From positions 104,961 to 168,960 of the IMG/VR virus record IMGVR_UViG_3300031992_000016: a stretch of DNA of 64,000 nucleotides; one strand, given 5' to 3'. How positions within the stretch are numbered: the first letter of the stretch is position 1; every line of letters starts with the position of its first letter. The notes below the pieces were generated by a model. The model did not search any database and was not told the DNA's origin. It saw nothing but the letters and a program-made list of their open reading frames with translations. The position numbers and the translations under genes are program-made. Below are positions 1 through 59,722 of this stretch, piece by piece. Origin of the DNA: a virus. Lineage: Duplodnaviria > Caudoviricetes.

Positions 1-475
1 CATCATAGTCGATATAAAGCGCCTTATCAGTGCCAGATAATGTGCCGTTATGCCATTGAATTAAAACTGAACCATGTACGCCGGTATTTTCATCTAAACC
101 AACACAAGCAGCCAAGTCCATTGTATCAAAGTAACGAGGTACTTCAAAGAATACAACTTCTGCGAGGTGGTCGCCAACAACTGCAATACCATTCTTTTGG
201 AAATCAGCTGGGACAGTAATAACACCGCTATTTGTATTAATAACAAAATACTGTTCATCAAATGGAACTCTCACATACAAAGGTAAGCGAGTCTAATCTA
301 TATTAGGCTTATTACGAATAATATCTAATGCTTCGTAATATTGAGACAAAGTTTCTACTTGTTGTAACCCAGAGTCAGCAGCCAATTGTTTTCCAATAGT
401 CATTGGCTCTGCATTTTCATTCTCAAATAGAACTCTGTTTAAACCCCTAGTTAAGGATTCTTGAGTTACTAGCAT
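1..475 (-). CDS. Putative virion structural (baseplate/tail-associated) protein, 3'-truncated by window edge; TAG=Gln
   Basis: ATG at 475 with SD GAAAGGAG. In-frame TAG at 293-295, then the frame stays open to the window edge (TRLPLYVRVPFDEQYFVINTNSGVITVPADFQKNGIAVVGDHLAEVVFFEVPRYFD). Confidence 0.75.
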
Positions 476-500
476 AGCTCCACTACTCCTTTCTCATAAT

Positions 501-530
501 TCGAGGAGTGCATTAAGATGCACTCCTCGA
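501..530 (-). terminator. Perfect 13-bp stem-loop with weak U-tract; terminator, attenuator or processing site
   Basis: tcgaggagtgcat-taag-atgcactcctcga, intergenic, just upstream of the SD of the 475 gene. Confidence 0.55.
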
Positions 531-564
531 TATCTATATACTTATCAAAAAATTATTAAATATA

Positions 565-780
565 TTATACTACTTCGTCCCGCATACTAATTTCATACCA
601 ATTAGTTGCCTCATCTTCTGGCACGGTCACTGTAACCATTTTGCGCGTACCATCTGTTAATAACTTCCCAGCATCTGCGCGCAATCTAATCAAACGTACA
701 TAATATACATCTTCTAAGTGGATAGGAGTTTCTAACACCCCATTAGTTCCAAGATAGCGATAAATAACTTGACGTGTCAT
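565..780 (-). CDS. Small hypothetical protein (71 aa), TAG-free
   Basis: ATG with SD GAAAGGGAG; TAA stop; directly follows the giant 799-8844 gene. Confidence 0.8.
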   Translation of the reverse strand: MTRQVIYRYLGTNGVLETPIHLEDVYYVRLIRLRADAGKLLTDGTRKMVTVTVPEDEATNWYEISMRDEVV

Positions 781-798
781 TTGAGTATCTCCTTTCCA

Positions 799-8844: not shown

Positions 8845-8866
8845 ACTTGTACTCCTTTCCTCTAAA

Positions 8867-8904
8867 TATCATAGCCATAAGAATGAATTCTTATGGCTAT
8901 GATA
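8867..8904 (-). terminator. Perfect 18-bp inverted repeat (hairpin) with weak U-tract
   Basis: tatcatagccataagaat-ga-attcttatggctatgata between the 8919 stop and the SD of the 8844 gene. Confidence 0.55.
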
Positions 8905-8918
8905 ATCTATATAATTAA

Positions 8919-13737: not shown

Positions 13738-13738
13738 A

Positions 13739-14086
13739 TTATGATATTCCCTCCCCCGCATACATCATATCAATTATAATTGAAGGCACTGATTGCGCGG
13801 TTATATTTAAGTCAATACTACTATTATCAAATTGTAATAAACGAATTAATGCTCCCGCACTTGCATCAATTTCCCAAATGCCAGATGGACCAATCATAAT
13901 TGGATAGACATCATTATTAACAAAAAAACGTGTGCCTGGCGCAGCCTAAATGCCTAAACGAGTAATTGGATAAAATGGTTCAAATGCGGTGCCATTAACC
14001 AACTGCTCTCTTGTAATACCTGCAGGAACATTAATTAAATTAGAATCTCCACCCCAGGTAATCTGATAAAAATTAATTGCATCCAT
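13739..14086 (-). CDS. Small structural/hypothetical protein (115 aa), absent from ORF track; TAG=Gln
   Basis: ATG 14086 with SD AAAGGAG; one TAG at 13946 (RLGI*AAPGTRF); TAA at 13739. Fills the gap between neighbours exactly. Confidence 0.75.
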
Positions 14087-14104
14087 AAATTTTAAACTCC
14101 TTTA

Positions 14105-16489
14105 TCACAAAATATCATCAGTTACTCGTGTAGCCTAAATCGACATTAAACCATCATGAGTAAAACTATAATTAAATGATTTAATTAAATATTCACCATA
14201 AATTTTAGTTTTTTCATCTTTCACAATTATTTTTGTATTAGGCTCTAAATAATATACTGGTACACACTATAAATTGATTGTTTCTTGATAAAAAGTATGT
14301 TGATATAATAATCCTTCTAATGTATCAACACAACTCTTCCCTCTTGTGCTAGTACGTAGTAAATTTTTAGCCCAATCTGGAATACGCAAAATGACATAAT
14401 TAATAGTATCGTCAGTAGTGGTATAATTCTATATTAAATCTTCTGTATCAGTATCTTTAATATCTTCAAAAATAACATTTGGTACAGAATGATATGAAAT
14501 TGCACGTACCTTATCATCGGTCAGCATTTGCTAACGATGACCAATAACAGAACATTTAAATTTCTACATATCAGGATTGTCTTCCATAAAATCAAACCAA
14601 AATAATAAATTCTATGGATTAACTAATTTAACATATTCTTTACCATTAACTTGACCATACGTAAAAGCATTCGGATTCCATTTACCATTATTTATCCAGT
14701 TATTATATTCTGCCTAAGCATTTTCATATGCACTATAAGCGTTTTGATATTTTTTATCACTAGGATTTGGTGGCAATATATCTACATTATGTACTAAAGG
14801 CCAAAAAGCCAATACATCAGCATAATAGTCTTTATAACCAGTAGTATCTGTTGCTTCCCATCTTTCAACTTCTTTTCTACCAATAGACCATAATGCAGAA
14901 CCAGCATTATTATTTGCCAATTTAGTAATTGTTGATTCTTTAACATGACTATCTTTCTATTGACGATCATAAGCCATAAAATAAATTAAATCACGCCAAT
15001 CATAAGGCGTCTATACAACCTATTCTGTAATAGGTATCGCGCAAGGATCATGTGGGTCCGCAGCAATACGATCAAAATATTCCTAAGTACAATACCATTT
15101 TAAGTCTTCAATAATACCTGCTGTCGTGGGTTTTACTAAACGAAAATATTTTAATGGCTTATCATCAATAGCATAACGCATATGAATTTTTCTTGTGCTA
15201 TAAGAAGTAGTCTATTCTCCCCAAATAGAAAAATCATTTTTAATATTATCTAACTTAGGTGTATTCTAAAAACTACTAATTAAATTTGCAGAAGTAAATT
15301 GATAAGAATACTTACTTACATCCGCTGCGCTAGCATAATAACGCTCTTTCCGCGCTTCACCTGTATTAGTAACTACTTCATTAGTAAAAGCAATATTACT
15401 ATATACTAATTTGCGGCGAAACCGAAAACGACCATATACATCATAAAAATATTCAAACTCACCGAGCATTTTTACAATCATATCTAGTGCTTTTGTTACT
15501 GGGTCACCAACAGATAAAGTTAAATCACCAGCATATGTTAAATCTGTCGGACGATAACCAATGGTTTCACCATATTCAGCACCAACTTCAAAATGATAAC
15601 CAATATGATTATGAATAAAATTACCAGTTAAACTTTCATGATATTTCATCCAAACTAATTTTTCTTCTAGCTTTTGACATTGCGTAAATGGAATTGTTTT
15701 TGCATACGCATATTTTTCATCATCAATCAACATCATTTGTGTTGTTTCACTTGATAAATCAAACATATTGTTGCCGTCTAATAACTCACCATACTCAACC
15801 GTTGAAGTAGTATTTAAAGTATAAATATTAAATACATAAACATTCACATTTTTTGAGTTATTATCTAATAATTCAACAGCTACATCATCTACGTCTTCAA
15901 TGATTATGTTACTATAAGGCTCACCTGCATAATCATGTGCAATACCTTTAACGATAGTACGTATATCTTCTTTTTCTTCTCCTTTATACATACCACCTTC
16001 ATAGATATAAGTAGTGCCAAAATCATGTGCAGCAAAAACTTTCCCGCCAACAGTTCCATCTAATAAACACATTTTATCTTTGCCAGTAATATTAATCGTA
16101 TATGTTTTATCATTTAATGTATGAGCAAAATTGGTAATTACAAATGTGCCTTGCGGGAACCAAATAATATCAGGATATTTATCGTTAATAAAATTCTATA
16201 GTCCTATATAACATTTAAATTTTGTTTGTAATGTCCAATCAATTTCAGTGAAATTAATTTTATCATATTCACAAGTTAATTGAATTTGACAAGTGCGTCG
16301 CATTGCACTTTCACCTGTGACGTTAATAGAACCGCTAACTACCTATCCTTCTAAAATACCTTTCGCTCGTTCATCAAAAGTTAATGCAATTAATCGACAA
16401 TAAATAACTCGTACTGGATATTCGTCTAACTATTTCAAAAACGTTTTATCCAATAGATACATAGAAGGATCATTTAATGCTGCTGTCAT
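14105..16489 (-). CDS. Putative baseplate hub/tail-tip protein (794 aa); TAG=Gln
   Basis: ATGA overlap with the upstream gene, SD AGGAGG. Track ORFs 15266-16072 and 14714-14920 are in frame. Motifs GSINVTGESAMRRTC and CVPVYYLEPN; ends TGA TAA. Confidence 0.7.
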
Positions 16490-25700: not shown

Positions 25701-26673
25701 CTGGATCAACTATATGCTCCTATCGTTCTATATGGCCAATATACTATACAACTGGCGCCCATTTTTCATTATCATTAATTAAAATTGATTTTAATTGTGC
25801 ATAAGTCACAACTTTTGTAGCAGTTTTATCAATACTACCATCAGGTCGTATCGTATCATTTAATGGTTCCCATCCTAACCCAGCCTATTTATCAATAGTG
25901 CCGGTATAATCGGTATTTTTTCTGAACCATTTAATTTTATAACGCTAATTTAATAAATCTTTATATTGATTAATTAAATTATATAAATCTTCCTACTACT
26001 AAATAGTTGTAATATCATCAAATAAATTCTCTGGATCATATAACATCTAATTAAAAATGTCTTTAAAAGCATTGCCATCCGCCCAATCTTCTTCAGTCAT
26101 ATCATCAAATAAAGTTAAACCATATTGATTATATAGGGCTTCCATACGATTATATAAATAAGTTAAATAATTCTTATTAACTAAAATGCGCTCAGTGCGC
26201 TAAACTGCTTGAGCTTCTATTAATAATGCTTCTTCCATCATACGAGTTAGCTCTTGCAATTCATATGTTATTGCTTCTAAGCGAGCGATATAAGCTGCTA
26301 ATTGTTCATTTGCATCTTCAATTTCTTCTTCTACATCTTGTCGTATTGCAGTAATGAAATCATTAAGCATTTGCGTACAATTCTTTTTAAATTCTTCTTC
26401 TATATAAGTATATACATCTTTATCCTGTTGTTTAGCTTCTTCTTCTAAAACTTCACGCTCTTTGCCTTTTGTTCTATCATAAATAACATATGCAGCATAA
26501 CGAGCCGCTTGCTCTTTTGCTTCACGTATTGCACGATCGCGCGCCAAAGCCTAAGCAGACAATGACACTGACGAATAAATAGTTTTTGCAGTTTTTTCAA
26601 AAGCGGTAGTATTAATACTTAAACCACCGCCACCAGCTTCTAACGGTACAGTAACAAAACTCAATAATCTCAC
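19720..26673 (-). CDS. Large tail-tip/central fibre protein, C-terminal part (2317 aa from GTG 26673); TAG=Gln
   Basis: Twelve track ORFs share one frame, separated only by TAG (including TAG-TAG-TAG at 25993-26001); TAA at 19720. The start is uncertain: GTGA overlap with the upstream stop and no clear SD. Confidence 0.7.
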
Positions 26674-29600: not shown

Positions 29601-29939
29601 CGCAGCAACCTAAACGAAATCATCAAAAGGCCATTTAAAATTATACGCCGCACTGCTACCTGTCATTAAACGACTTACAATGCGTTTCTAATTGTCCCAA
29701 TTATTCTATGGAACTAAAACTTGTACCTATTCGCCCGCGAAAAATGACTATTCTGAGTATGCTTCAAAACGAGTATTTTCATATTCACAAGTGTAAATAT
29801 TTTTATCCTCTTCCGAACGCGAAATGATAGTACAAGGCGAATAAGTTTTATCAAATTTTAAATCACTTAATGCTTTTTTAGTCAATAAATCAACTGCACT
29901 TAAAACGCCATTTGCAACACTATCATTAAAATTAGCCAT
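26670..29939 (-). CDS. Large tail protein, N-terminal part (1089 aa); TAG=Gln
   Basis: ATG 29939 with SD AAAGGAG. The frame stays open through many TAGs, includes track ORF 26970-27209, and stops at TGA 26670-26672. Confidence 0.72.
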
Positions 29940-29981
29940 ATCTTCACACTCCTTTTACTCTATAACTCTATAACATAATGT

Positions 29982-30015
29982 AAAAAGGGCCGGATTCTTT
30001 AATAGAATCCGGCCC
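29982..30015 (-). terminator. Rho-independent terminator after tape measure gene
   Basis: gggccggattct-ttaat-agaatccggccc followed by TTTTT on the minus strand. Confidence 0.8.
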
Positions 30016-30022
30016 TATATTT

Positions 30023-39000: not shown

Positions 39001-42000
39001 TAGCAAGCATAGTATTACGTGTATCTTCGTTGTTTAATAATTTTCCATTTTCATCTATGTTTTCTGATAAAAAACGCTAAAAAGTACGCTAATGCTCCCA
39101 TTGCTATTTAGCCTAATCAACATCTTCTACACCCATTCGTTCTTGCATAAAAGCATTCTATGAATCTGTAATAATAGTATTTAAATCTACCATTCCATCT
39201 TCATATTGTTGCCACCAATTATCATAACCTGTGCTTATTTGCTCCATTAAAGTCGCCATTTGTGCGGCTTTTTCAGAAGAAGACATTTTATTCCATTCTT
39301 GAGTATTAAAAATTTCTCCTAATCCTAATAAATCACTTACTATTGGTAGCTATGCCGCAAAACTATCTATATCAAATTCACCAGAATATCTATTACCCCA
39401 TTGAGCCAATAAGCCTGTTGCAGTTTGTGCTTTTGCTTGTTGCTATAATAATTGAGGAACTCGTTTGTCCATTAAATCACCATTATTATCTAAAAATGGT
39501 GCTATATTAGCCATATAAGACCAATCTTTATCAGTAAAACCCCACTGCTCTAATTTTTTCTACGCTTCTTCTTTTGTCATTTTTTTATTACGAGTTGTCA
39601 TTGCAGTTACAGCAGATTCTTTATTAGCAACCGTTGCATCTGCCGCAGCTATATCACTTTCTGATACACCGACTAATCCTCTGGCATAAGTAGTTACTAA
39701 TTGACTAGCTTGTTTTTTAGCTGCTCGAGTAATAGCATCATTTTTATTACTATCTATGCCCCAGTCTGCTAATAAACCTTCAACTAAACTCTCCTATACA
39801 TCAGAACTCCATCCTTCAACATTTTGTTGTTTTAGCCAATCCTAGCCTTTTAATTCTCTCATACTCTTAATAGCATTAAGATATGGAGAAATCATTTCAG
39901 TGATCATGTAATCAATATCTTCAAATGATTGATCATGTACTAAAGCTTCTAACTATGATTTCATTCCAGGGTCTTCAATAGTTTTTGCTGCTTCTTTAAT
40001 TGCTTGTAGCTAATTATAATAATGTAACAATGAATCTAAATCAGATTCAATAACTAAGTCATCGGCAGTTCGTGCCATCCCTGTTCCACCCGCGCGCGCA
40101 CTACCGCCTAAGAATGATTGAATCAAATTATTTTCTTGATCGCCTGTTGCATTACCACTAAGCCAATAATCATATTTTCGACTACCAGCATAATCAATAT
40201 TAATACCATATTGATTAGCTAACATATCTCTTATATTTGCATTCTATAAACTTTTTAATAAACCAGATTGTTTCATATTAGTATTAAATGAACTTAATAT
40301 GTCATTATAAACAACTCCGGTTTTATTCCCTTCATTATTATCTCTATATTTGTCTCCCATATTTTCTTTTGCTATTTTAGTAACCTAATTTTCTAAACCA
40401 TGTTCTGCGCGTCTAACATCAGATTCTGCAGTTTCAATTTGTTGTTCACGTGCAGCCTCAATAGATTCTTGAATAGCTGCAGTTAATCCTTGATAATTAC
40501 CAGTAAGTGCCATAACTGCAGCACCCTAAATGCCTAAACTAGATGCGATATCAGCTAAAGCACTACTATATTCTTGAACAGATAATGCACCTTCTGCAAA
40601 CTATTTGTTTAATGAGTCAAAAGCATTACTATTAGTCATTAATTCTTGATTTGATTGTTGATGTTCTTCTAAAATTTTATTTGTAGTTTCTGCCATTTTA
40701 ACCATTTCTTGTTCACGTTTTTCTTGCTAATCTTTCATATACGTAAATACACCAGCAATTGCCATACCAGCCGCTTGAATGCCTGCCATCAATGGTCCTT
40801 GTGTTGCAAATGTATTAAGTAATGAACCACCTGCACTAACAATAGAAGTTACACCTGCTAATGTATCACCACTTTCAAATGACTTCATAATACCTTGCAT
40901 AGAAGTAAAACCTTGAACTGCAGCCATGGCTCCTTCTGCAACTGTTGCCAAACCCTTAGACAATTTTTGAGCTGCAGCTTCACGAGCATTCAATGCTTGC
41001 TCTTCTTCATCTTCCATATCAAAGCCTGCAGTAATCTCTTCTTGGCCTACCTAACGACCATATTCCTAAGCTCTATGAGCAGAATCTTCACCAACAATGC
41101 TACGCATTTCCTGATAAGCTTCATCTAAGTCATCATCAATTTGATCACGTAAATGCTCTGCAATAACTCTTCCACGATCAGCTTTAGTAGCTTGATTTTG
41201 TTCATTAAAACCAGCACTTTCAAGCCAATCATTCATTTCATTTTCGTCTTGCGGTAAAAAATCACGTACTGCTTGAGCCATTGGATTATTCTCATCCATC
41301 ATAACAGACTCAAAACGCTCTGCAGCCGCTGTACTATCTGTGTCCTCATTAAAAATTTGATCTATCTATTGATTTACTGCACCACGTAAAGCATTTCCTC
41401 TAGCTTCTTCTTGTACTCTATTACCTAATCCACGTATCGCTGTATTTTGTACATTCTTATCATCTGATTTAAAATCTGCTACCATGTCATCAAGATCACT
41501 ACCACTATAACCCTGATCAGCATAATAATTTAAAGCATTAATATAAGCATCATCACGTAATTTATCAGCAGTACCTGTACCTTCTAATTCAACTAAAGAA
41601 CCAATTGATAATTCTCTACGAGCTTCATCTGTAATATTGGCTAAATTAGTTTCATGACCTGCCATGGTTTGCTAACGCTAATTTAAATAATCAATATGCT
41701 ATTGTAAACGCGCAGCTTCTTGTCCACTCATATGCCCTTGTCGTAATAATAATTCTTGTTTAGCTATCGCACTTTCACTTCTTGCGTCTGCACTTAATAA
41801 ACGCATTGTATTTGCAGTATTTGCACTTGTATCTGGTGTTAATTCACTTTCTCGTCTATCTAAAGCGCTATTATATTCCATATCTGCCGATCTACGTAAA
41901 GTTGTTAGATTATCAAATAAATTTCGCTATTGAGTGCCTTGTGCAAATTTTTGAGCACCATACTAAGAAATTGCTTGCATCCTTCCGCCATAATTATTTG

Positions 42001-43681
42001 AATTATTTTGCATATAAGCATTAAATTTTCTATAAGTAGGAATACCACCAATTGGATGCCCTTCTGAGCCTTTTGCTGCTTTCATGTTGCCCCATGCAGT
42101 CCGCAACGTACCACCTTTGCCAAAGAAATTTCCAAATGCCATGCTAATACCTGTTAATTTATCTAACATCTATGGTTTAAATGCAGTCATCATCATCTAA
42201 GAAATTTTTGCTAATATACCAGGGATACCTCCAAGACCATTAACTAAACCTCTAACTGCAGATAACGCTGTTGCCAATGCATTATTAAATCCAACAAGGA
42301 ATTTATCATTAATTAAATCACCGAAAATAGCTTCTTTACTTGCTTGTACTCTTTGTTTAGATGCTTTAACAGAATCTTCATAAATTTTCTGCATTTTTTC
42401 TAAGCTGCCAGCTGAATTTTGAGCATTTTGCAAATCTTTTTGATACGTATCCCAGTTTTCAAATAATGCCATTAATTGCGTATATTGACGTTTACCAGCA
42501 ACAACCTGCGCGATAGCAGTTTTTTGCGCACTGCCCATGGTCTACCATTTATTACCAAGATCAGTAATAACATCGCCCATATCACGCATATTACCAGTAG
42601 CATCTAAAACCTATACACCAATAGAATTTAATGAGCTTGAAACTTTACCTAAATTAACACCGTCTTCTAATGTTTCACCTAATTTTAAGTCACCCATACG
42701 TGCTAAAATAGTTTTAAAAGATGTACCAATTGATTCAGCACTTTCACGAGTAACAGAAGATACAGTTGCAACAATAGAAGACATTTGTTCCATACCGACA
42801 CCAACAGTACTAGCAGTCGCGGCAACTTTCTATAAAGCTGTTGCAATTTCTTCCATGCTAGTAGCAGTAGTAGAACCTAATTTTGCCATTACATCTACAT
42901 AACCTTCAAGCTAATCACCGCCTGCTTTATAAGAATTCCAAACGGCGGTTAGCATTTCTGACATTTCCGCAGCATTAGCTTTGAATGCAGTATTTGCAGC
43001 CTTTAAAGTAATTTGTGCTTTCTTTTGTACATCTCTATCATTATCACCCTATTGATAATAAATTAATGCTGCATCAGCATATGCTTTTGTTGATGTACTT
43101 AAACTTTTTGCCATTACATTTGCTTCTTTTGCAAAATTGCTCATATCAGAAATAGATTTGCCAGTAACAACACGAATATTATTTAATGAAGTATTTAAAT
43201 TTTCAATATAGCTAACTGCTCCACTCATAGCAGACTATAAGCCATGAACCATTTGACTAGCTGCTTGCCATTTCACAGTATTCATTAAAGTTGTGCCAAA
43301 CTATGCAATAAGACCAGTCGCTTTTTGCGCGGGAATAGTTGCCTAAGTTAGAACAGAAGACAACTATGAAATTGCCTATTGTCCAGTTGTACCGGCGCGC
43401 TAGAAACTGGCAATTAACGTTTGAACATTTGTATTAGCACTCGCCAAGCTATTACTTAATGCACTAAAATTAATTTGCCCAGTATTAACATTAACTGCCT
43501 ATTGTAATGCCTACTATAATTTTGCTGCTTGCTACGCGGCATCTGCCATATTTGTATCAATTTTTAAATTTAATCTACTGTTTTGCTGCAATCTTTGTAA
43601 TGAAGAACTTAATTGTTCAACCTACCGCTATGCAGCACTGGCATCAGCCTAAATATTAATTTTATACTATACACCAGCCAC
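30023..43681 (-). CDS. Tail tape measure protein (4552 aa); TAG=Gln
   Basis: About 19 track ORFs lie in one frame. GTG start with SD GAAAGGAG; TAA at 30023. Tape-measure core motifs (ESAESIGTSFKTILARM, VAGKRQYTQLMAL), LGIASPSK, and C-terminal GYASGGLVDYTGPAWVDG and LE*NVHISAEFPNA. Confidence 0.88.
37450..37935 (-). repeat. About 7 tandem 24-aa (72-bp) repeats inside the tape measure gene, consensus KTITFQGEFGTYTA
   Basis: gtaccaaattcaccttggaaagtaatagtttta occurs at 37539 and 37611, with degenerate copies on both sides. Confidence 0.8.
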
Positions 43682-44342: not shown

Positions 44343-45584
44343 TTATGAATCTGCGATAGACGCTAAAGTAGATTTTGAAATTTCAGTTATCCAATCTCCT
44401 TTTTGTTTATGTATCATTTCATTAACTTGAGTATAGATTTTGCTAATAATTTCTGCTGTACTAATAACATAAATGTTTGCACTACCAGGATCATTATATA
44501 CTAAATAATTAGCACCTAAATCACCAATACCATCTTTCTTTAATTCATTTCTAATAATTTCGTCTACATAAGTTTGACCTCGACCTGTTAATTCATAAAT
44601 AACACGTAACTACTATAAAGCTAATCGTACATCTTCACGATGAGTATTACGAGCATAATAAAAAATACTAATTGAAACACCATAAGGAAATCGAGTATTA
44701 AGCAGATCTAAATAAACACGTTTACTTTTTGTCTAACCAAAATGAACTGAACGTACTCTTGACTAAATGGCATTTGTAATACCTGTCGCGGCGTCTTTAA
44801 TATATGATAAACTATTATAGTTTTTTGCAGTAAAATAAGCTTTATGCAATAATTTAGCAATATGCATTAATTTAGATCCGGCGGTTGCAGTAATTGTTAA
44901 TTCAACTGCATGTCCATTCACATCGACTTTACCATTAACAGTAGTTGTTACAAAATCATCGGCAGATGTTCGTTCATCAAACAGGCGTTTAATTTTATCT
45001 GCTTCCTCTTGTACTGCAGCATTAGCAAGATCACTTATTGCTCCATCAATCATACTACGCAATGGAGTATGCGCACCTTTCGTACTTACTGAATGCCCCA
45101 TAACATTTACTTTTGCGGCACCAAAAATAACATCATTTAAATTGGCATTTTTTGCTCCTCCAAACTACTAAGTCGCCATACTGATAGCCGCCAATTCGCC
45201 TTCTAAAACATCACCTTGCGTCCAACCTTTAGACTTCAAACCAGTGCGAGTAAAAAAACCTCTGCCACTAGCGCCAATAACAGAACCCGCTTCTTGTAAA
45301 ATCTAACTTAAAGCTTGTTGCTAAATACCACTTTTTAATGATATATTCTCAAAACCCTTATTACCTTTATTAGATAAATTTTTTAAATCACGAAAAAAAT
45401 CTTGCAATTCTCTTGCTTCAGCAGCACTACCTGCTCCTTCAACTGCTCCGTGACTATTACCAAGACCATTCATAATATTATTATACTCGCTCATTAATTC
45501 ATCACGCATCGCAGTTAATGCTTGATAAGGATCTAATCCTTCATATGCTTTATATCGTTCACCTAAGTGTAATAATCTTGGCAT
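44343..45584 (-). CDS. Hypothetical protein (413 aa); TAG=Gln
   Basis: Track ORFs 45321-45584 and 44763-45101 are in frame; reading continues through further TAGs to TAA at 44343. Confidence 0.72.
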
Positions 45585-45656: not shown

Positions 45657-46739
45657 TTATTCACCAAAACGCTTTGGAGGTTCCTTACCAGAATCTTCAT
45701 AAATGTCGCCTGGGAATTTAGTATCACCCTCAACTGCGCCACGAGTTGAACCATCATAAAGTGCAGTATCTTCAACAATCTGAAGAGCAGCAATTACTTT
45801 CTTGGTCTTATCAAACTTAGTATAGTCTGGGAAAGCATCCATTGTGAAAGTAAAGGTAGAAGGATCACCAGTAGGTGCCATTGTGAAGGTAAAGTTAGAC
45901 TGAACCTTGCAGTTAGGAATGATAAATTCAGCAGGATAGTCTTCACCAGTTGCTTCATCACGGAACAAAGTAGAAGCTTCAAGATAATAAGAACCACCGA
46001 ACTTACCAGCTTCAATATCAATCTGCTTTACATACTGAGTGCTCTTTACATAATAGTCAATATAAAGAACAGAACCTGGATCATCGCCCATGCCATTAAC
46101 GTAGTCATATACTTCCTGTGGATTCTTAGCATCCTTATAAGCATCTACGTTTGCTTGGAACTCAGTGCCAATAGGAGCATGAGCATCCATGATCTTACCA
46201 GCGACCAATAATTCATTATGAGCAGCATTATAAGCAGCAGCCCAATGAGCAAAGATTTCTTCAACGTTCATTTCCTTAGCAATATCATCACGTTGAATTT
46301 CCATAGGAATACGATTGGTATTAATAGAACCATCAGCATTCTTCAACATAATATACATGCTACCACCCTTGGCTGGCTCATGAGCAAGAGTAATCTTACC
46401 TGCTTTAATCTGAACCTGCTCAGTAGTATGTACATAAATAGGATGATCTTCATCAGCATCCATGAAACCAGCACCAGAAAGAATTGAGAAGCTTTCTGGA
46501 CTAATCAAAGCATCTTCCATTGTAAATGTTACAGTACGGTCGCCTTCCCAAGCTACCAAGCGAGGATTACCTTTACCGCCCTGAGCATAAACAGTTGTGC
46601 TCTGGCCTTCCAAAGAAGAAGTCTTCAATGTTTCAAAATATAACACAGGCATATCCTTGTCAAGATACAACTTACCGAAGAAACCTGCTGCCTTACGACG
46701 AAGTACAACATCGCAAATTTCGCGTACGCCAAATCTCAT
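45657..46739 (-). CDS. Major tail (tube) protein (360 aa); TAG-free
   Basis: The true start is MRFGVREICDVV after SD AAGGAGG. Motifs VYAQGGKGNPRLVAWEG and FTMAPTGDPSTFTFTMDA; followed by a strong terminator. Confidence 0.75.
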   Translation of the reverse strand: MRFGVREICDVVLRRKAAGFFGKLYLDKDMPVLYFETLKTSSLEGQSTTVYAQGGKGNPRLVAWEGDRTVTFTMEDALISPESFSILSGAGFMDADEDHPIYVHTTEQVQIKAGKITLAHEPAKGGSMYIMLKNADGSINTNRIPMEIQRDDIAKEMNVEEIFAHWAAAYNAAHNELLVAGKIMDAHAPIGTEFQANVDAYKDAKNPQEVYDYVNGMGDDPGSVLYIDYYVKSTQYVKQIDIEAGKFGGSYYLEASTLFRDEATGEDYPAEFIIPNCKVQSNFTFTMAPTGDPSTFTFTMDAFPDYTKFDKTKKVIAALQIVEDTALYDGSTRGAVEGDTKFPGDIYEDSGKEPPKRFGE

Positions 46740-46756
46740 ATGCGTTTCCTCCTTAA

Positions 46757-47515
46757 TTAATGTAAACTTTTCATCCAATCGTCTGGTTTACTGTCGGGTT
46801 TTCCGCCAGCCAAACGTGATCTTATATCTAAATCCCACCCGACATATAAGCCGTATCTCTCAATCAAATCATAGAGCTGATAGACCGTAAGATTAAGGCA
46901 ATCATCCAGACTCATGGATTCCAGAGCAATGGTGAGAATAGAAACATATCTAGATAAAACACCATCATTACCACCCGAGCCTCTACGCCGAGCAGCTTCA
47001 CTACGACCCTTCATTAATTTCGCCGCAATTGCAGCAGCTTTATTACCTTTTGGATTATAATTTGAGTTCTAACCACCAGTCGCATTATTTAATCCACACA
47101 CTTCTGTTAGAATTGCTTGCACAGTATCAAAATTATTTTCATCAAGAGTAAAAGAATGTTTTGTCGTAGCGTTATTAAAAAAAACTCCCATAGGTAAAAA
47201 CTATGCAGTATATCCTGGGAAAAACAACATAAACAGTTGTTCGATGGTATTTTTCCGCTTCCCCGAATCCTAAATATTCGGGTTAGCTACTAATGTCATA
47301 AATATCTAAAAATTATTAAGGGCGGCTAAACTAGAAGCGCCCTATCCTGTCTAAGATGCTAAAAGCACTTTTCGATTAAAACACACTAACTATAAGGCTA
47401 AAAAATATTCTTCTTCACCAATTAATGCAATTTCCGCGATTTTAGGCTAGTGGATTGTAGTCTATAACTCAACTACTGGGATATTAGTCCCAGCCATTAA
47501 AGCTAATGAATTCAT
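46757..47515 (-). CDS. Hypothetical tail-module protein (252 aa); TAG=Gln
   Basis: ATGA overlap with the upstream gene; MNSLALMAGTNIPVVEL*TTIH*PKIAEIALIGE; in frame with track ORF 46757-47014. Confidence 0.75.
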
Positions 47516-49891: not shown

Positions 49892-49892
49892 A

Positions 49893-50492: not shown

Positions 50493-50520
50493 ATTTTTTT
50501 ACTCCTTTTTCTCTTAAATT

Positions 50521-50545: not shown

Positions 50546-50558
50546 TTATATATGATTA

Positions 50559-51614
50559 TTAATCGCCCGTTTCATTTGCAGAACGTGTAACATTCAATTG
50601 ACCTTTAAGAGCATCGTCGATATATACGCAGATGTCTGGAGTCATAACAACACCAACGCCTACTTTCTTATAGACCTGAATTTCACGGCTGCGATCCTTA
50701 TTGACATATTCATCAACAATAGTGCTACCTTCCATAACAACCTTGGCAGGCTTTACAGCACCTGGAAGAATATAGCAATAACCTGGGTCAATAACCTTTG
50801 TCTGATGAGTTGCATCAGTGAAGCCCTGTGGAAGAATAGTAATAGGATGATTCTTATAAGAAGCAAAACGACCATTATTCCAAATAGTATCCTTCATATT
50901 GTCAGAATACATAGCAGCATTAGCAGGACGAATCTTAGAAGCAAATTCTTCAGTGCAATAAATGGTAGGAGTACCATAAGCTGCAGCGATAGAAATTAAA
51001 CGATCAAATGCTGCTTCATCCCAACCAGTAACTTCAGCAGTATTAAGAGCTGGAAGCTGATTCAAACCAGTCTTCAAAGCCTGACCGATTTCCCAATAAA
51101 TGAGTTCGTCAAGACCTTCCATAACAATACGAGTTACCTCAGCAAAATCAGCACGACCATCAAGGAACTCTTCCAAACCAATCTGAGCGGCACCGCCGAT
51201 AGCACTGGTCTGTACTTCGATAGGCGTATCTTTACCAAGCTTAAATACTTCGTAAATACCAGCCAAACCGACCTTGGTGATGAACTGCTTTGCACGCTGA
51301 CGATCATGCCAACGCATAAAGATAGCCTTGTCACCCTGAGCCATGGTCTTTACTTCGGCAAACTTGCCATATTCCTGCTCAACTTTACGAGGAAGAACAT
51401 CATCCATGGTCTGTTCGATTAATTCAAAGATAGTATTCTTATTTTCACGATAAAGAGCAAAAGTGCCTGCATACTCATTGAGTTCTTTACGAAGGGTCTC
51501 ATTGAGTGCATCATAGGTGAGATTCTCACCATTAAATGAATATGCAACAGGAGCAGAGCGATCGGCCTTAGCTGTTGCCTTCATCAATTGAAGAAGTTCT
51601 TTCTTATCCAACAT
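50559..51614 (-). CDS. Major capsid protein (351 aa); TAG-free
   Basis: Size and position after the protease and head protein genes. Motifs ALYRENKNTIFELIE and AIGGAAQIGLEEFLDG; strongly biased codons; SD AAAGGAG. Confidence 0.8.
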   Translation of the reverse strand: MLDKKELLQLMKATAKADRSAPVAYSFNGENLTYDALNETLRKELNEYAGTFALYRENKNTIFELIEQTMDDVLPRKVEQEYGKFAEVKTMAQGDKAIFMRWHDRQRAKQFITKVGLAGIYEVFKLGKDTPIEVQTSAIGGAAQIGLEEFLDGRADFAEVTRIVMEGLDELIYWEIGQALKTGLNQLPALNTAEVTGWDEAAFDRLISIAAAYGTPTIYCTEEFASKIRPANAAMYSDNMKDTIWNNGRFASYKNHPITILPQGFTDATHQTKVIDPGYCYILPGAVKPAKVVMEGSTIVDEYVNKDRSREIQVYKKVGVGVVMTPDICVYIDDALKGQLNVTRSANETGD

Positions 51615-51634
51615 TGTCAATCTCTCCTTTCCTA

Positions 51635-52384
51635 TTACTGAAGTCTCATAATTTTAACAGCTGGTTGCATATCGCCAAGATTATAAACCTTAACTACCTG
51701 CCATACCATACCAGCAGGAAGAGCAGGAGCATTTTCACCACTAGGAGCGGTAACCTTAACAAGATAACCATCTTCGCCTGGGGCCAAAAGATCACCACGA
51801 GCTAAAGAACCTGGATCTGCTTTAATGCAGTTAGTAGTAAAAATATCACCCTCATGAGTCTTAAAGAGACGAGGTACCATAATACCCTGGGTATCAGTAA
51901 AGAGCTGTGGCTGATTTAATACTTCAACTTCATACTTGTTACCAATAGCAAAATGATTACGACCAAAATCTTCACCAGGATAGGTTTCGGTATGTCCATC
52001 TGGATAAATCTCACTATTAGCACCAATAGTCTTCATCAAAGGATTAAGATCAACATTATTAGCACCGGTTACACCAACTGGGCTATAAACAGAGCCGGTA
52101 TAGTCACGACGGATCATTGCGAAGTCCTGATCGGTTTCGCCCTTGGCATAAACCTTTACTTCGTTATAAACTAACATCCACTCGCCCTTGCCGGTAAAAT
52201 TGACTACATTATTAGCATAGTCATACTTTGCAAACTGACCATTCTCAAGAATCTTAATATTCTTAGCTGCTGGCAACTGTGCATAAATCTCGCCAGTGCG
52301 CTGTGCAGACAAATGGTTAGGTTCAACCTGACCGAAGCCATAAGTTACATAAGTGGCTACCGGTGAAAGTCTTTTAAAAGCCAT
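51635..52384 (-). CDS. Head structural/decoration protein (249 aa); TAG-free
   Basis: Intact ORF between protease and major capsid genes; GQVEPNHLSAQRTG motif; SD AAAGGAGG. Confidence 0.65.
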   Translation of the reverse strand: MAFKRLSPVATYVTYGFGQVEPNHLSAQRTGEIYAQLPAAKNIKILENGQFAKYDYANNVVNFTGKGEWMLVYNEVKVYAKGETDQDFAMIRRDYTGSVYSPVGVTGANNVDLNPLMKTIGANSEIYPDGHTETYPGEDFGRNHFAIGNKYEVEVLNQPQLFTDTQGIMVPRLFKTHEGDIFTTNCIKADPGSLARGDLLAPGEDGYLVKVTAPSGENAPALPAGMVWQVVKVYNLGDMQPAVKIMRLQ

Positions 52385-52405
52385 TGTAGCTTCCTCCTTT
52401 ATTTA

Positions 52406-53743
52406 TTACATATTTTTGGCGGTTTCGCGCACGGCCTTAATCCAGGCAGGAGCGTTATCTGACTCGCCCGTTTCATCTAAATTGAAAGTGAAGTCTTTTT
52501 CAGGCTTCTTTTCAGTATCAAGGTCGAAACTTACCTTGTTACGAACACAAAGAATACATAATTTAGCTTCAATATCGTCCAAAGAATATTCATCAATCTT
52601 TGAAACTACATCAGCCTTATCGGCATCTGTAAGCATATAGAAACTATCAATCATGTCTTGCTTAGCCTTGCGATCGGCATCAGCCTTGAACTTGCGCAAT
52701 GGCTCAAGTTCAGCAGTAAGAGAATTTACCTGCTCTTGAAGAGAAGCGAACTGTGATTGAAGATCCTTGTAAAGTTCAGACTCAGTAATCTCTTCATCAG
52801 AAAGAGAATGCTTGGTCTTTTTCTTCTTTTTATCTTCGTCTTCATCATCTTCTGGTTCAGACTTGTCATCCTCACCATCGCCTTTATCAGATGCGGGCTT
52901 GTCTTCTTCCTTCTTCTTTTCATCAGAAGGATCTTCGCCTTTATCTTCTGGCTTGTCCTCGTTTTCTTCCTCGTCCTTGGGCTTCTTCTTAAATTCAGTA
53001 TCATCGTCCAAGGGGAGGTTCTCTTCAACAGGAGGATTTAATTTTTCATTCTCATTGTCCATGTGAGCATTTCCTCCTTTTTCCAGCATTGCTTTAATTT
53101 CCCCGACCATAGCATACATTGTCTGCTTAAAGTCATCATCTAGGGAGAATGTTGCAGCAATTCCGGCGCCTTCAAAGCAAGGTTCGCAATCCTCACCGAG
53201 AATGCAAAGTTTGGAAATTACTGCCTCATTGATTATAAAAAATTCAGGCCATCCATTATCGTCAAATGACCAATCTCCGTTAGTAAGACTTTCATCTAAC
53301 TCCATTGATTGATTATTCCCATTTGTTAAAATACGCTTAGATTCTGGATATGCCCCAGTCCAAATCCACCCTTCGGTCATTAGATACTCATGATCTACGC
53401 CATCATCAGTGAATGTTTGAAACCATACTTTTGCGTTCATATCTACAAATCCATAAGGACGTGTAGTATCAACAATTCTTATGCCATCGCCACGAATTTC
53501 TAAGTTCTTATTATGCTGCTCAAAATCATCTTTGTTTTCATTATAAAAACCAACGATTGGGCAGCCCGGCAAAGACTTAGCCATTTCAGTCGCAACAGCC
53601 TTGGTGATAACACTACCATTGCGGTTAGGTTCATCACCCACATAACATACTTTAATTTCACAATGTGAAATTAAAGGATTAACGGGAGTAAAATTCAATA
53701 ATGAAATTGTATTTTCCCGCGGTATGCTTATATGACGAGCCAT
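52406..53743 (-). CDS. Prohead protease/scaffold fusion (445 aa); TAG-free
   Basis: N-terminal NRNGSVI..H..QSMEL..LCILG..EPCFEGA protease-like motifs, then an acidic linker and a C-terminal coiled coil. Confidence 0.72.
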   Translation of the reverse strand: MARHISIPRENTISLLNFTPVNPLISHCEIKVCYVGDEPNRNGSVITKAVATEMAKSLPGCPIVGFYNENKDDFEQHNKNLEIRGDGIRIVDTTRPYGFVDMNAKVWFQTFTDDGVDHEYLMTEGWIWTGAYPESKRILTNGNNQSMELDESLTNGDWSFDDNGWPEFFIINEAVISKLCILGEDCEPCFEGAGIAATFSLDDDFKQTMYAMVGEIKAMLEKGGNAHMDNENEKLNPPVEENLPLDDDTEFKKKPKDEEENEDKPEDKGEDPSDEKKKEEDKPASDKGDGEDDKSEPEDDEDEDKKKKKTKHSLSDEEITESELYKDLQSQFASLQEQVNSLTAELEPLRKFKADADRKAKQDMIDSFYMLTDADKADVVSKIDEYSLDDIEAKLCILCVRNKVSFDLDTEKKPEKDFTFNLDETGESDNAPAWIKAVRETAKNM

Positions 53744-53755
53744 TTTACTCCCTCC

Positions 53756-55357
53756 TTAACCTTGTGAATTCTTATTAGCGATAGTTTTATCTGATTTTTC
53801 ACTATCAGCTTTTTCTGGTCGCCCACCTGTATTACTATCAGATTTGGCCGTTTTACTCTAACTTACTTCGCCCGCAGTTTTACCACTAGAACCAACTGCT
53901 TTACCAGACATAGTAGAAGACATCATTGGCGGTATCATAATATCAGACAAATGAAGTATCTCATTCTCGAAATGAGCAGTAGCTAAAATAGAACTCTGCC
54001 GTTGTCCCATAGCAACAAGAGGTAACATTTTAGAATAACCAATCTGCACTAATTCTTTATAGAATTTCGCAACTTCTTGGTAATTATAAATGGTAGTTTC
54101 TAACATATAGCTGCGGAAACTATACCGTTTATTTGGGGGACACTTTTTAGTTATCATTTTATTAAGGAAGGCTTCATACTGTAACAATAAGTTACGCATA
54201 GTGGCTTCATCGTTTAAAATAGATGATTGCAAAGCGATGTTTCCATCACTATTGAATAAATTTTGTGAAACACCAAATTCATTATAGACTTGTCTCTCAA
54301 TCTTCTCCAAACCATCCGCCGCGGCAGCAGTGCTATTTGAGTCAGCCATATCTGCAACATCAACGTCCGCAAAGGTAGTTAATACATCAACACCGACCGC
54401 ACGTTTTAACATACTAACTGCATTATTATGAATATCACGTGCTTCATCAACGTCGAATATTAAATCACCATTTTTATCAAGAGGCAATTTCTAAATCAAT
54501 ACTTTTAATAACTATTGCATGGTCTTACGACGGTCTAAATCCTGCGCCTAGTCTAAATCAATTAATGTAGGAATAGAATTAACCAAAATTGGCATATCCG
54601 ACCCATTTAAATTAAATTTAAACGCGGCAGCTGTATCCAACAAATACCAACCTTCACTATCACCAATGCCATCGCCCATTAGCTTATGCCGCTTATATAA
54701 TAAATATCCTTCTTGGAAATCTTCTGGGAACATTTTCAAAATCTTCATACGATAAACCGCATCAGGAAATTTATCATCAAAGAAGCGCATATTAAATTCA
54801 ATAGCCGGCATCCCAGCTTTAAAATAGCGACTGCGGCAATAATCAGTTGGTAGCTCTTGAATTGTCATACAGTCTTTGGTATCAACCCAATAACCATAAT
54901 AACAACCATCTCGAATAACCTTTAATGCAATATCGCCAAATACTTTTTTGAGATTAGAATTATCTAAATAAGTAAGTATTCGCGCAAATTCTGTCAGCAC
55001 TTTATCTTCTTTTAATTTATCATCTTCGATAATATATGGCGTAACATAATAATCATAACGATAAAGGAAGGCGAAGTATTTACATAAACGTTCATAAATA
55101 CCAGATATATCATAGAAATATTGTGATACTAAACGTTGAGTTGCATAATCTTTTTGCGCGAGTGCTTTTAAAATAAAATTCTTATCTGCATAAGTACGAT
55201 TGTTTTTCTTTAATGAGCCAAGGTCCAATATAGCATCTTCCAAATTTTGTAAGCCGACTTTAATTTTACGGAAGTCTATACTGTCATAATGAGGTGCGAC
55301 AACTGGCTCAGACATAGAAAATCCTTTGGCTTTAATTTCATCCTAATTTCTTGGCAA
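53756..55357 (-). CDS. Portal protein (533 aa); TAG=Gln
   Basis: TTG start after SD AAGGAGGTG; TAGs at 55343, 54548, 54512, 54491, 53858. C-terminal GGRPEK motif; size and position between terminase and protease genes. Confidence 0.8.
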
Positions 55358-55370
55358 TCATCTCACCTCC

Positions 55371-55727
55371 TTAGTATCCAGCTTTTTTCATAATATAATC
55401 ATAACTTAACAAATGTTCTTCTGTATAAGGAATTTCTATTAATTTATATCCATTCAAAGCACAAAAACGTCGTTTTAAATTATCATTATACTACTGTTGG
55501 AAAAATCCTTTTTTACCACCATATTTGGCAGAAGGCTAATAATGCTATTTTCCTTGATACTCTATTAAAAAATCTATTTCTCCATCATCATCAAATACAC
55601 AAAAATCAAATTTTAATGGTCTTCCACTTGTACTTACTAATCCTGCAAATTGCTGCTCCATAGTAAAATTAGCATCAGCTGCTTCTAGGATTTCGCGGAT
55701 AGTAATTTCTCCTCTACTTGCATTCAT
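55371..55727 (-). CDS. PD-(D/E)XK (Vsr/DUF559-like) endonuclease (118 aa); TAG=Gln
   Basis: LKFDF..LIEYQGK*HY..DNLKRRFC..LIEIPY; TAGs at 55545, 55536, 55491; TAA at 55371. Confidence 0.72.
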
Positions 55728-55731
55728 ATCT

Positions 55732-57468
55732 TTAACTCCCCTCAGTAAAAAACATCATATCACTAAGTCGCCCACGCTTACGTTTTTTACTATCCTCTTC
55801 CTACTTAATGTAGTATAATCCGTATTCAAATGCTGAAAACTTATCCTTGCGGATAGTATTATTTGCACGCTTTAAAATGATATTAACACCTTCATTTTCT
55901 TCGCGCAAATTCATCATTTCTTCTTTCAATATGGAAGTCAAAGTAAATGGTTTAAGATATTCTGCCCTTTCTTCGGGTTTCATCTCTTGTCCGCGTTTTG
56001 TTCCCATTAATTTATTTTTAGCAGCTCGCTCACTAATTAACATTTTTACACGCCCTGATGATAACTGAGTTTGTGCATTTGCGTGAGCCTCAGTGTTAAT
56101 AGGCGCATTTGCTTTAATTAAATAAAGTGCATCATACTCGCAATTATTAGTTTGATACTTTTTATAATAATTATCTTCATCATTATAAACACCAAAATCT
56201 GGGTATGTATCATTTGTGTCTGGATCTACTTGACCTTTAATCATATAATCGACTAGACCAATACCCAAACCGTTAGCATCAATTACTATACGCTTAGCTT
56301 TAAATTTATAATATAATTTCTTTAAATAAATTGCCTAATCTTCAAAGTGTTCATCTGACATTGTAAAAATATTTACTAATGTTTTAATAGATGCGCCAGC
56401 ACTTTGCGGCGTTACTTTAAATACACAAACAACAGAATCACAACCTTTGCGGCCAACATCAACAGAGAGTACATAATATGCTGTACTACGAGAACGTCCA
56501 GAATACTCATACTCTGGCTAATTTAATTTACGATTACGTTCAAATTGTTCGCTATTGAAGAAAGCATCTTCAACTGTGCCAGACCATTTAGACTCATACT
56601 CTCTATCAAAAGATGACTCATTAAATGTACCATCCATTTTTAAGTCTTTAATAAATGACTTAGAAAGCAAGCCCATGATAACTGGGATGCGCCAGGTTCC
56701 GCCCATAATAAATGCTTTATCTGGGTCGATAATCTATTGTACCAATAGCGTCATCAACTTATCGTAAGCAAATGTATTCTTCCATCCTGCTGTTGTAATA
56801 TATAATTGTGATTTATTTAAAGTTTCCTCTTCGCGCACCTCGCCGCTAGCGCAACGTCGCGCAACGTTCATTGTAGGAATTATAACTTCGTTTAAGATTG
56901 TACCATCAACACCAACGCACTCTTCAACAACACCGGCATGACGACGCTTACCACGCGAGGTATCTCTTGCCGCAATATTGTCAAACCAAGAGCCATTGTA
57001 AAAAACGTATTTACAGTAGTCTTTGCCTTCCATTGTTTTTCCTCGGCGGAAATCAATTTCGTGCGCGAAAGCTGGTATTAATGTACAAATTTCAGAAACT
57101 TTTTCTTTCATAATGCCGCTGGCCTGCTCTTTACCGCCAGAGGTAACGAATAAATGCGCACCTGGGTACAAGATACAACGAATAATAAGTATCATAACGG
57201 CTAAGAATGATTTAGAATAAGCACGAGGGAATACTGCATACACGTATTTTTTACGCATCGCCGCACGCATGAACACTCTTTGGTAATAAAATAACTAAAA
57301 ATTATTAGGATTACCAAATTGTAGCATAAAATCTACAAATAAATCTGGGTATTCACGCCAAAAAGCAACATATTGGCGCGCGATGGGTATAATAGCCCTT
57401 ACGCGCTCCTCAGATAATCCTATTTTATTTAAATCATTGCGCAAATTGAGTAAATCACTTAATGCCAT
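55732..57468 (-). CDS. terL: Terminase large subunit (578 aa); TAG=Gln
   Basis: Walker-A-like FPRAYSKSF, RGKRRH, Walker-B-like VVEE, YITTAG, nuclease SVDVGR and VIDANGLG, KDKFSA. TAGs at 57295, 56734, 56518, 56335, 55801. Confidence 0.88.
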
Positions 57469-58649
57469 TAGACCACCTCTTATTCATCTGTAAGAGATTG
57501 CATCCACTCTGCATCCTCTTCCTCTTGTTCTTCAAGGAAGTCGAAGTGATTTTCAAAATCTTCGTCCTTTAATTCTTCCAAATCTTCAATATCAAGTTCT
57601 TCATCGTCATCATCATCAGTCGTTAAGTCGGCTTCATTAGCATTAGATTTCTAAATTTCAATAATAGCCTGCTCAATACGGTCGCCTAAGTGCATCTCTT
57701 CGCGCACCAAGGTATCTGTATATTTTTGCATGTCCTTTAATGTTTCATCAACGTGGTCTTTTGGACTATCAACATAATATTTTGGAATAAAACCTTCCTG
57801 CTCGCAAATACGCACAAGCTCACCGACCGCATTTACATACTCGCCATTTTCATTTTTATTTTGCGCAGCAGTAAATTTAGCGGATTTCATTAACATGTCG
57901 TAGGTGCGCATTAGCTTTTGGAAGCCTTCAACATCGCCTAAGTCCAAAAGCTGATGCCCTTTAAGAGAGGTTTTACAAATAAACTTTAATTGGTCGATGT
58001 GCGCTGGTGTCTAAATGTCGAACGCTTCCATCATATCAGAGTAGAATTGTTCTAACTACACCCACTCATGTGGTCGATATGTTTTACCCCATTTAATAGA
58101 TAGATATTTCTTATCTTCTTCTGTTAAATCATCCTAAAAATCATCTGGTGTTAATAAATCAATTGGGGCTGGCGCAGCTTCTTCTTGTTTCGCCTACGGG
58201 TTGGCCCACTCAGGCTTCTCAGGCTTAAAATCTTTTTTAAGTTCATCGTCGATTTGTAATCCATCATAGCCCTATTCTTTCATGGCCGCAATTTTTTGCT
58301 ATTCCAGTTCGGCCTAAATCCTCTCAGTATCCGCCCAACGATAATCCTTAAATTGTTTGAGTTTCATCTTGGACAAATAACGGCCCAAAATTGTAACACC
58401 GGTTACTTTATTGCGGTCTTTGCCATATTTTTCTAGTAGTGAGTTCCACTCTTGCGGGATATATGGAACGTCGCATTCTTCTAATATCCATAAGTAAGTC
58501 TATGGATCCCAGTTATCAACATGTCGTGTAATACACTTTTTACACTCAAAAAGCTTACCATCTTTCGGGTATTTATCTAAACGGTATGATTGATAAAACT
58601 AATTGCCGTCCATGGTGCGGCCGCACGTTTTGCAATAATAATCTGCCAT
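57468..58649 (-). CDS. Zn-finger protein, putative terminase small subunit (393 aa); TAG=Gln
   Basis: CKTC..CKKC N-terminus and acidic C-terminus; TAATG coupling to terL; multiple in-frame TAGs. Confidence 0.62.
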
Positions 58650-58651
58650 AA

Positions 58652-59722
58652 TTAAGTCGCCTTCTTTCGGTTCTTAGCGTTGCGGCACTCCTTGCAGATA
58701 GAATACCATCCATCTTTTGAAGTGTTATTTACCGAAAAATAACGTTGATGTGCTAACTTAATTTGCCCACAGCGACTACACCGCTTCCACTTGCCCTTTT
58801 CCACGAACGTATAGTGCCACATCAAAAATTCATCTTGGGCGTATTGCGCGATGAGTTTAGGGATTTTATTGCGCCATAAAGACGAGATATATTCAACTGA
58901 GTGGGTGGTGCCGAATTCTTTTTCTAGTTGCGCCTTAATTTCTTCATTGGAGAAGTAAGACATTTTACATTCAGCGATGCGGCGATACATAGGAAATTTA
59001 TCAAGAGCCGCCGCATAATAGCGGTCGAAATCCTAGATGGTCGCCCACAGGTCAGTTTGCATATGATCCCAAACTTTATCTTTAATTTTGTGATAGTTGC
59101 ACATAATTGCGGAAATAACTTTGTAGTCACATAAAGAAATACCGCTCCAGCGCACCCCTTTTGTCTAAGGGTCAATCCACTCATCAAAGGGCAGCGTAAT
59201 TGGGAACCGAGTGCCACTATTCACATTCGTAAATTTAATGGGCGTCTTGTATGCGTTTTTGATTAAATACTAATCTTTCCGCATCTCGATCAATGTGCGC
59301 TTAATGATGTAAGCGTCACGCCCAGTTGCGACTTTCTACTTGGCTTCCCAGCGCTTTATTCCTTCTCTAAGTTCGCGCAAGAACGGTATTGTATCTACGT
59401 CTTCCTGAGTTATCATTACTTTTGGTTGAAAAATTACATTTTTATTATTTTCTACTAATAAATTATATACACCATCTTCGCCGTTCTCAAATTGCCCGAC
59501 CAACCCCTCAAATGAGGTTTCGCGTTTAGTTATAGTTGCCATGCGGTTCTCGGTGAGGAGGCGGCGCTATTTGCGTTCTTCTTTTTCCATACAGAGAACT
59601 AGGTAATCGGCCAATGCTTCAAGATACTGCGGAGTTGGGTCTTCCACTTCGGAGAGTATCTATTCAACTAATTTTAAACGCTCTTCTGGAGCTTCAATAG
59701 TATAGTCTAATTTTGTTGCCAT
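58652..59722 (-). CDS. Putative DNA-binding protein with HTH-like region and C-terminal Zn finger (356 aa); TAG=Gln
   Basis: ATG 59722 with SD GAAAGGAG; TAGs at 59660, 59567, 59336, 59270, 59033; CSRC..CKEC; TAA at 58652. Confidence 0.72.

Follow-up and report, generated by a model that had tools for sequence, protein, structure and literature searches.

How does a phage translate genes that are riddled with TAG codons, and which enzyme supplies the amino acid? The question is raised by a stretch of 64,000 nucleotides (nt), here called the window, from the virus record IMGVR_UViG_3300031992_000016. The window corresponds to positions 104961-168960 of a complete phage genome of 168,960 bp that has a 127-nt terminal repeat. 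The phage is a gut-type, SPbeta-like siphophage, and the window is its late (morphogenesis) arm, in which TAG is well supported, by comparison with homologues, as a glutamine codon. This recoding adds a further case to a known, published phenomenon, as a preliminary description of the window had recognized, and genetic code 15 has already been published for this phage group. Our main subject is therefore the tRNA-CUA encoded elsewhere in the genome, whose variable region forms a second, anticodon-like arm. In our best explanation, to which we give a probability of about 0.65, the phage would switch its host to TAG=Gln for the late genes, using a tRNA that divides decoding from identity between two arms and relies on a host enzyme for charging.

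The late arm occupies the minus strand of the window (1-59722), where 28 joined whole genes tile positions 799-59722 and 284 in-frame TAG codons are spread over 23 genes. Measured with stop-to-stop frames of at least 150 codons, minus-strand cover is 0.365 with table 11 and 0.918 when TAG is read. Reading TGA instead (table 4) gives only 0.385, which is no coding gain, and we rejected TGA reassignment in this phage. The gain is thus specific to TAG, as the preliminary description had proposed. Its five quoted motifs (asterisk, TAG) were all located: IEYQGK*HY at 55371-55727, LI*KLP in the portal protein, HFED*AI in the large terminase (TerL), IH*PKI at 46757-47515 and LE*NVHI in the tape measure protein. 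The late genes end in TAA (23) or TGA (5) and none in TAG, and 7 of the 8 starts inspected have a GGAGG/AAGGAG/GAGG-like sequence upstream, in line with the expected Shine-Dalgarno-led initiation. Two parts of that description need correction. ATGA/TAATG overlaps are not the rule: most junctions are gaps of 1-83 nt, and our gene calls include only two 4-nt overlaps and no 1-nt overlap. Likewise, the claim that the whole morphogenesis module is recoded applies to the 23 genes that carry TAG, but not to five others, including those for capsid, decoration, scaffold and tail tube. The recoded late arm also extends past the window to genome position ~82 kb, where tail-fibre-like and lysis genes are found.

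The identity of the inserted amino acid was judged by aligning the window's proteins, with X at each TAG, to 166 related loci (119 TAG-recoded, 2 TGA-recoded and 44 neither). Across all relatives, the residues at 45 TAG columns are Gln in 43% of cases, Lys in 14%, Glu in 12% and Ser in 3%; the corresponding reference columns have Gln at 45% for CAA and 59% for CAG. When only standard-code loci are considered, Gln makes up 50% at TAG columns and likewise 50% at CAA columns. Among near-invariant TAG columns, 13 of 19 are Gln. At individual positions, residue 378 of TerL, a TAG codon here, is Gln in 94/94 non-TAG homologue loci, and residue 289 of the portal protein is Gln in 121/121. Protein-level proof of TAG=Gln comes from two crAss-like phages (PMC9523058).

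The same columns make it scarcely credible that TAG specifies Ser, Trp or Tyr instead, even though features of the tRNAs hint at each. A long arm together with G73 is the signature read by seryl-tRNA synthetase (SerRS; PMC7609411, PMC5389517), the D and anticodon arms of the tRNA-CUA resemble those of tRNA-Trp, and the genome has no tRNA-Tyr. However, Ser stands at 3% and Trp and Tyr below about 2% at TAG columns, compared to 58-76% at their own codons, and the pairs G1:C72 and A3:U70, which Ser tRNAs in the same loci have, are absent from the acceptor stem. Low-level misincorporation of Ser at TAG is possible.

Usage of TAG differs sharply between parts of the genome. In the late arm, 346 of 1163 Gln codons (30%) are TAG, versus 7 of 437 (1.6%) in the replication genes. 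This distribution bears on the possibility that the host itself reads TAG as Gln, in which case there would be no switch and the phage tRNA would be a supplement. Such a host would fit the observation that no credible TAG-terminated gene occurs anywhere in the genome, as well as the lack of any release-factor modulator found in this genome. It would also ease a heavy demand: for a gene with 103 TAG codons, we computed that at least 97.8% read-through per codon is required for 10% full-length product, and another gene has three TAG in succession (codons 232-234 of the 19720-26694 gene). We nevertheless consider a recoded host very improbable, because TAG is almost restricted to late genes, because Borges et al. 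report standard-code hosts (bioRxiv 10.1101/2021.08.26.457843), and because close relatives use codes 11, 15 and 4, which are intermingled on the TerL tree and imply a minimum of five forced changes (this is a quick tree, in which three long outgroup rows are unsurely placed).

The tRNA-CUA that was predicted to lie outside the window is indeed there. It is the only one among 33 tRNA genes, on the plus strand at genome 37355-37447 (L001:13356-13448). The tRNA genes as a whole lie at 26226-39270 and serve all amino acids but Tyr; they include two tRNA-Trp and a short-armed tRNA-Ile(UAU). Right behind the tRNA-CUA are weak matches to YrlA, a Y-RNA-like RNA (L001:13467-13573; genome 37.5 kb). The tRNA-CUA is 93 nt long and combines A1.C72, G2:C71 and G73 with a 7/5 body, a 4-bp D stem and a 23-nt variable region. 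This variable region is a hairpin whose 7-nt loop, CU-CUG-AA, copies the anticodon loop of tRNA-Gln(CUG). Judged by its sequence, the acceptor is of the Gln type. An origin from tRNA-Trp, prompted by the D and anticodon arms, was rejected, as acceptor stems of the family are Gln-like, and a model trained on the CUA tRNAs scores this genome's tRNA-Gln(CUG) above its tRNA-Trp. Two other classifications were also set aside. ARAGORN labels the gene tRNA-Pyl, which would have a 3-nt variable loop rather than 23 nt (a gene for pyrrolysyl-tRNA synthetase was not searched for). A class II Ser tRNA or allo-tRNA is contradicted by the missing G1:C72 and A3:U70, by the lack of an 8/4 or 9/3 branch and by the lack of Ser at TAG.

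We then considered how widely the second arm occurs. A viral scan that left the arm unspecified yielded 33 distinct long-arm CUA tRNAs, of which 32 have YUG 18-20 nt before T54, and 28 of these 32 have it at exactly 19 nt. The normal distance from anticodon to T54 is 19-20 nt, so the second triplet sits in anticodon register. In shuffled sequences the count averaged 4.9 and never exceeded 12, and the match was seen in 8/182 other long-arm tRNAs, although the sequences share ancestry, such that the shuffle counts are not probabilities and the counts are not independent trials. The two closing pairs of the second arm are formed in 30/32 and 31/32 cases, with swaps among CG, GC, TA and AT that amount to covariation. 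By fold prediction, the CUG/YUG triplet is left open in 60 of 83 CUA arms.

A second scan, again with the arm unspecified, indicated that the second triplet tracks the amino acid: CUA is accompanied by YUG in 31/32 (a stricter recount), UCA by CCA, the Trp anticodon, in 13/13, and the UAU of tRNA-Ile, taken from the same loci, by GAU in 10/11. Cross-combinations of anticodon and second triplet are at background, as are the arms of ordinary Ser, Leu and Tyr tRNAs (13, 9 and 9 of 149). This three-way match between triplet and amino acid is a stronger argument than the counts. A scan that demanded GAU added 71 further Ile-UAU arms, in which the unspecified stem positions are paired in 70-71/71. 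In all, long-arm tRNA-Ile(UAU) with GAU in the extra-arm loop was seen in more than 70 viral contigs (L225, L229, L248, L276, L715-L834). The CUA form is shared by this clade, phAss-1 and a recoded crAss-like phage (G050) related to IAS virus, and a relative with TGA in TerL carries the UCA/CCA form. In prokaryote genomes, the matches listed look like chance. U33 is missing from the second loop in 7/32 CUA arms and in most Ile arms, and a loop that often lacks U33 suits recognition better than decoding. A search of literature in which subscription journals were poorly represented found no published natural two-arm tRNA, only an engineered example.

These observations suggest the following mechanism. 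The phage would bring a Firmicutes host that uses the standard code, probably one of the Clostridia, to read TAG as Gln in the late genes. The CUA arm would decode UAG, and a host enzyme would charge the tRNA. Glutaminyl-tRNA synthetase (GlnRS) is the likelier enzyme than glutamyl-tRNA synthetase (GluRS) with GatCAB, because the 1:72 pair is mismatched. Gln identity elements are U35, G36, G73 and the 1:72 pair (PMC9976931), and a CUA anticodon lacks G36. The second arm, located at the canonical distance from the T arm, would take the place of the anticodon arm while the host synthetase is bound, so that decoding and identity would be divided between the two arms. A precedent is that an engineered pseudo-anticodon in the variable arm increased charging (PMC7590224).

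Several points weigh against this explanation. Three recoded relatives (G025, G027 and G028) have only a short tRNA-CUA, and ordinary amber suppressors are charged by Escherichia coli GlnRS through U35 (PMC9976931). Taken together, these facts imply that the second arm is at most an enhancer and not obligatory; we regard an enhancer as more likely than a requirement. The engineered construct of Mukai (2020) required an added binding domain (PMC7590224). When the arm of this genome is folded alone, its minimum-energy fold hides part of the CUG (-5.0 versus -2.0 kcal/mol). The shared ancestry of the scanned tRNAs, mentioned above, counts here as well. The proposed mechanism does not explain how release factor 1 (RF1) is defeated. 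The short tRNA-CUA has an atypical T-loop, GGUCGGCACC, in two of the relatives (G025:186653-186727 and G027:176451-176525). That the short-tRNA relatives encode their own GlnRS was considered and rejected, as none was found in 35 genomes.

It is important to consider what else the second arm might do. It could be a decoy or handle for an anticodon nuclease, a modification enzyme or a quality-control enzyme, with TAG=Gln still holding and the host enzyme reading the CUA arm. Consistent with this idea, some relatives manage with a short tRNA-CUA, and genes near the tRNA cluster point to an attack on host tRNAs: an RNA ligase, an RlaP-type nucleotidyltransferase and a DUF2828/DUF7788 (Ro60-like) protein, at L003:1627-6652 (genome 43.6-48.7 kb). 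However, a decoy gives no clear reason for a cognate anticodon in three tRNA classes at the exact anticodon register, and cutting a decoy arm would still break the tRNA. We therefore think this function unlikely. The arm probably began by duplication of the anticodon arm, and it might be no more than a neutral remnant of the duplication from which the suppressor arose, which would account for both triplet and register. Yet the second arm differs greatly in stem length and sequence, with compensatory changes, whereas its triplet and register are constant in SPbeta-like phages and in a crAss-like phage, and a neutral remnant thus appears quite improbable.

Among complete relatives, a tRNA-CUA is present in 6/6 that are recoded versus 0/4 that use the standard code. 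The preliminary description had allowed for a synthetase or release-factor modulator elsewhere in the genome; however, GlnRS/GluRS, tryptophanyl/tyrosyl-tRNA synthetase, GatB and release-factor families (PF00749, PF00579, PF02934 and PF00472) have no match in the complete genome, and GlnRS/GluRS has none in 36 phage genomes. In this respect the phage differs from the Jade-type code-change module, which consists of tRNA, synthetase and release factor. Release factors of the RF2 type, with SPF and GGQ motifs, do occur in two TAG-recoded genomes, G010 (L933) and G013 (L934). No candidate RF1 inhibitor is common to all six recoded relatives and absent from the four standard-code ones. The best recoded-biased proteins are a DNA ligase (5/6 vs 0/4) together with two uncharacterized proteins, one encoded at genome 21169-21987 (4/6) and the other at 14000-14605 (3/6).

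Not all late genes use TAG. None of the 45 Gln codons in the genes for the major capsid, decoration, scaffold and tail tube proteins is TAG (Fisher p 1e-7 vs other window genes). The capsid, decoration and tube genes of recoded relatives use TAG for 0-1% and CAG for 79-88% of Gln codons; the major capsid gene lacks TAG in 37/39 of these relatives and the tail tube gene in 13/14, whereas TAG makes up 16% of Gln codons in the YonD-like gene. The major capsid gene is likewise free of TAG in one crAss-like phage (10.64898/2026.08.21.746148). We infer that TAG decoding capacity is limited and that TAG is selected against in high-copy proteins, in which case the most abundant virion proteins would avoid TAG and use CAG.

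In comparing the phage to known systems, we found that its TerL shares 48% identity with its counterparts in Enterococcus phage H1 and Geobacillus virus E3, and 43% with that of phAss-1, of the proposed Phassvirus (OQ749652; PMC10607447). Like the present phage, phAss-1 is SPbeta-like, has TAG=Gln structural genes and a tRNA-Sup-CTA, lacks its own synthetase and has a predicted Clostridia host. Its paper reports three Sup tRNAs without mentioning a second arm, although its second Sup-CTA gene bears the same CU-CUG-AA arm. The suggestion that the lineage is new therefore holds only in part: phAss-1 is a published TAG-recoded relative, but its major capsid is only 50% identical, TerL is as distant as stated, and its genome measures 136 kb compared to 169 kb. 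Judged on these two proteins, the phage falls outside the genus Phassvirus, within which nucleotide identity is >80%.

The Agate clade (bioRxiv 10.1101/2021.08.26.457843) likewise mixes members that have reassigned TAG or TGA with relatives on the standard code, has late genes that are recoded and replication genes that are not, and shows two-replichore GC skew. RF2 is present in a few of its TAG-recoded members; here it occurs in relatives G013 and G010 (SPF motif). Based on these shared properties, this phage group probably belongs to the Agate clade. The paper on that clade does not describe tRNA structure and leaves the charging route open. Code-15 crAss-like and Lak phages also read TAG as Gln in late genes, with an unrelated virion module. 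A pattern scan found no long-arm tRNA-CUA in Lak-B1, IAS virus, cr85_1 or cr111_1, although recoded IAS-like phage G050 has one.

Among tRNAs, the closest counterparts are the engineered ones of Mukai (2020; PMC7590224), which are amber suppressors whose variable-arm tip shows a cognate anticodon that recruits the synthetase. They differ in being synthetic, with a 9/3 allo-tRNA body, His identity, an added anticodon-binding domain and a modest effect. Allo-tRNAs and class II tRNAs (PMC5389517, PMC7609411) share the long variable arm and an unexpected anticodon, but the acceptor branch of allo-tRNAs is 8/4 or 9/3 and their identity is mostly Ser or Ala, whereas the tRNA-CUA has 7/5, a 4-bp D stem and a codon that aligns with Gln.

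The head-tail genes of the late arm follow the order YonG, YonF, portal, YonD, YonB and YomX/W/V/U, which is an SPbeta-like module. The names YonG, YonD, YonB and YomX/W/V/U were transferred from Pfam matches on a relative whose TerL is 92% identical and whose genes agree in order and size. All genes are on the minus strand. The first (58652-59722, 356 amino acids, 6 TAG) has its own sigma-A-type promoter at 59776-59748; given this host-type promoter and the 6 TAG, its transcription could be early and its translation delayed until the code has switched. The product matches PHROG 5767, labelled sigma factor (E 2e-47), and has no Pfam match. A fold search did not confirm this label: the best sigma match (Z 6.5, root-mean-square deviation 3.2, 76 residues) stood amid unrelated helical rows, with no clear structural match. 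Next come a YonG-like protein (57480-58649, 10 TAG; its positional counterpart in the close relative matches Pfam YonG_N), the large terminase, similar to SPbeta YonF (55732-57468, 578 amino acids, 5 TAG), an HNH/endonuclease-like open reading frame (55371-55727, 118 amino acids, 3 TAG, of which two fall in columns with invariant Gln) and the portal (53756-55357, 533 amino acids, 5 TAG). Four of the five genes without TAG encode a YonD-like scaffold/protease candidate (52406-53743), a probable head decoration protein assigned by position (51635-52384, 10 CAG), the YonB-like major capsid protein (50559-51620, 12 CAG) and the YomU-like tail tube protein (45657-46778, 9 CAG). Further joined genes encode the tape measure protein (30023-43681, 4552 amino acids, 103 in-frame TAG) and a tail-region protein of unknown family (19720-26694, 2324 amino acids, 38 TAG). 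Double TAG is also present in 30023-43681 and in 44343-45584.

Beyond the late genes, the plus strand at window 59785-63808 has thirteen near-perfect sigma-A promoters (TTGACA-17-TATAAT, extended TG), mostly 200-400 nt apart among small open reading frames. The resemblance suggests an early host-takeover region of Firmicutes type. The late arm's far end, genome 82405-83823, holds a lysin gene with SpoIID, NlpC/P60 and SH3 domains and 6 TAG. A xanthine/uracil permease gene with 2 TAG is located at genome 42238-43524, downstream of a gene for 186 amino acids.

The tape measure gene has 103 TAG and the genome no RF2, which points to an unknown means of beating RF1. The two-arm tRNA addresses a question of Borges et al., namely which route charges suppressor tRNAs in phages that encode no synthetase. 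On balance, we find it probable that there is a natural phage class of tRNAs in which one arm decodes a codon (UAG, UGA or AUA) whose anticodon is poorly accepted by the host synthetase, while the other shows the cognate anticodon (YUG, CCA or GAU) to an unmodified host synthetase; the Ile(UAU)/GAU form extends this two-anticodon design to a sense codon. From the tRNA alone, the second loop would then predict which amino acid a reassigned codon specifies. If this is true, it would be a new tRNA architecture that parts decoding from identity, and a general route to suppressor tRNAs that native synthetases accept, by which phages of unrelated groups would rewrite the code without a synthetase of their own.

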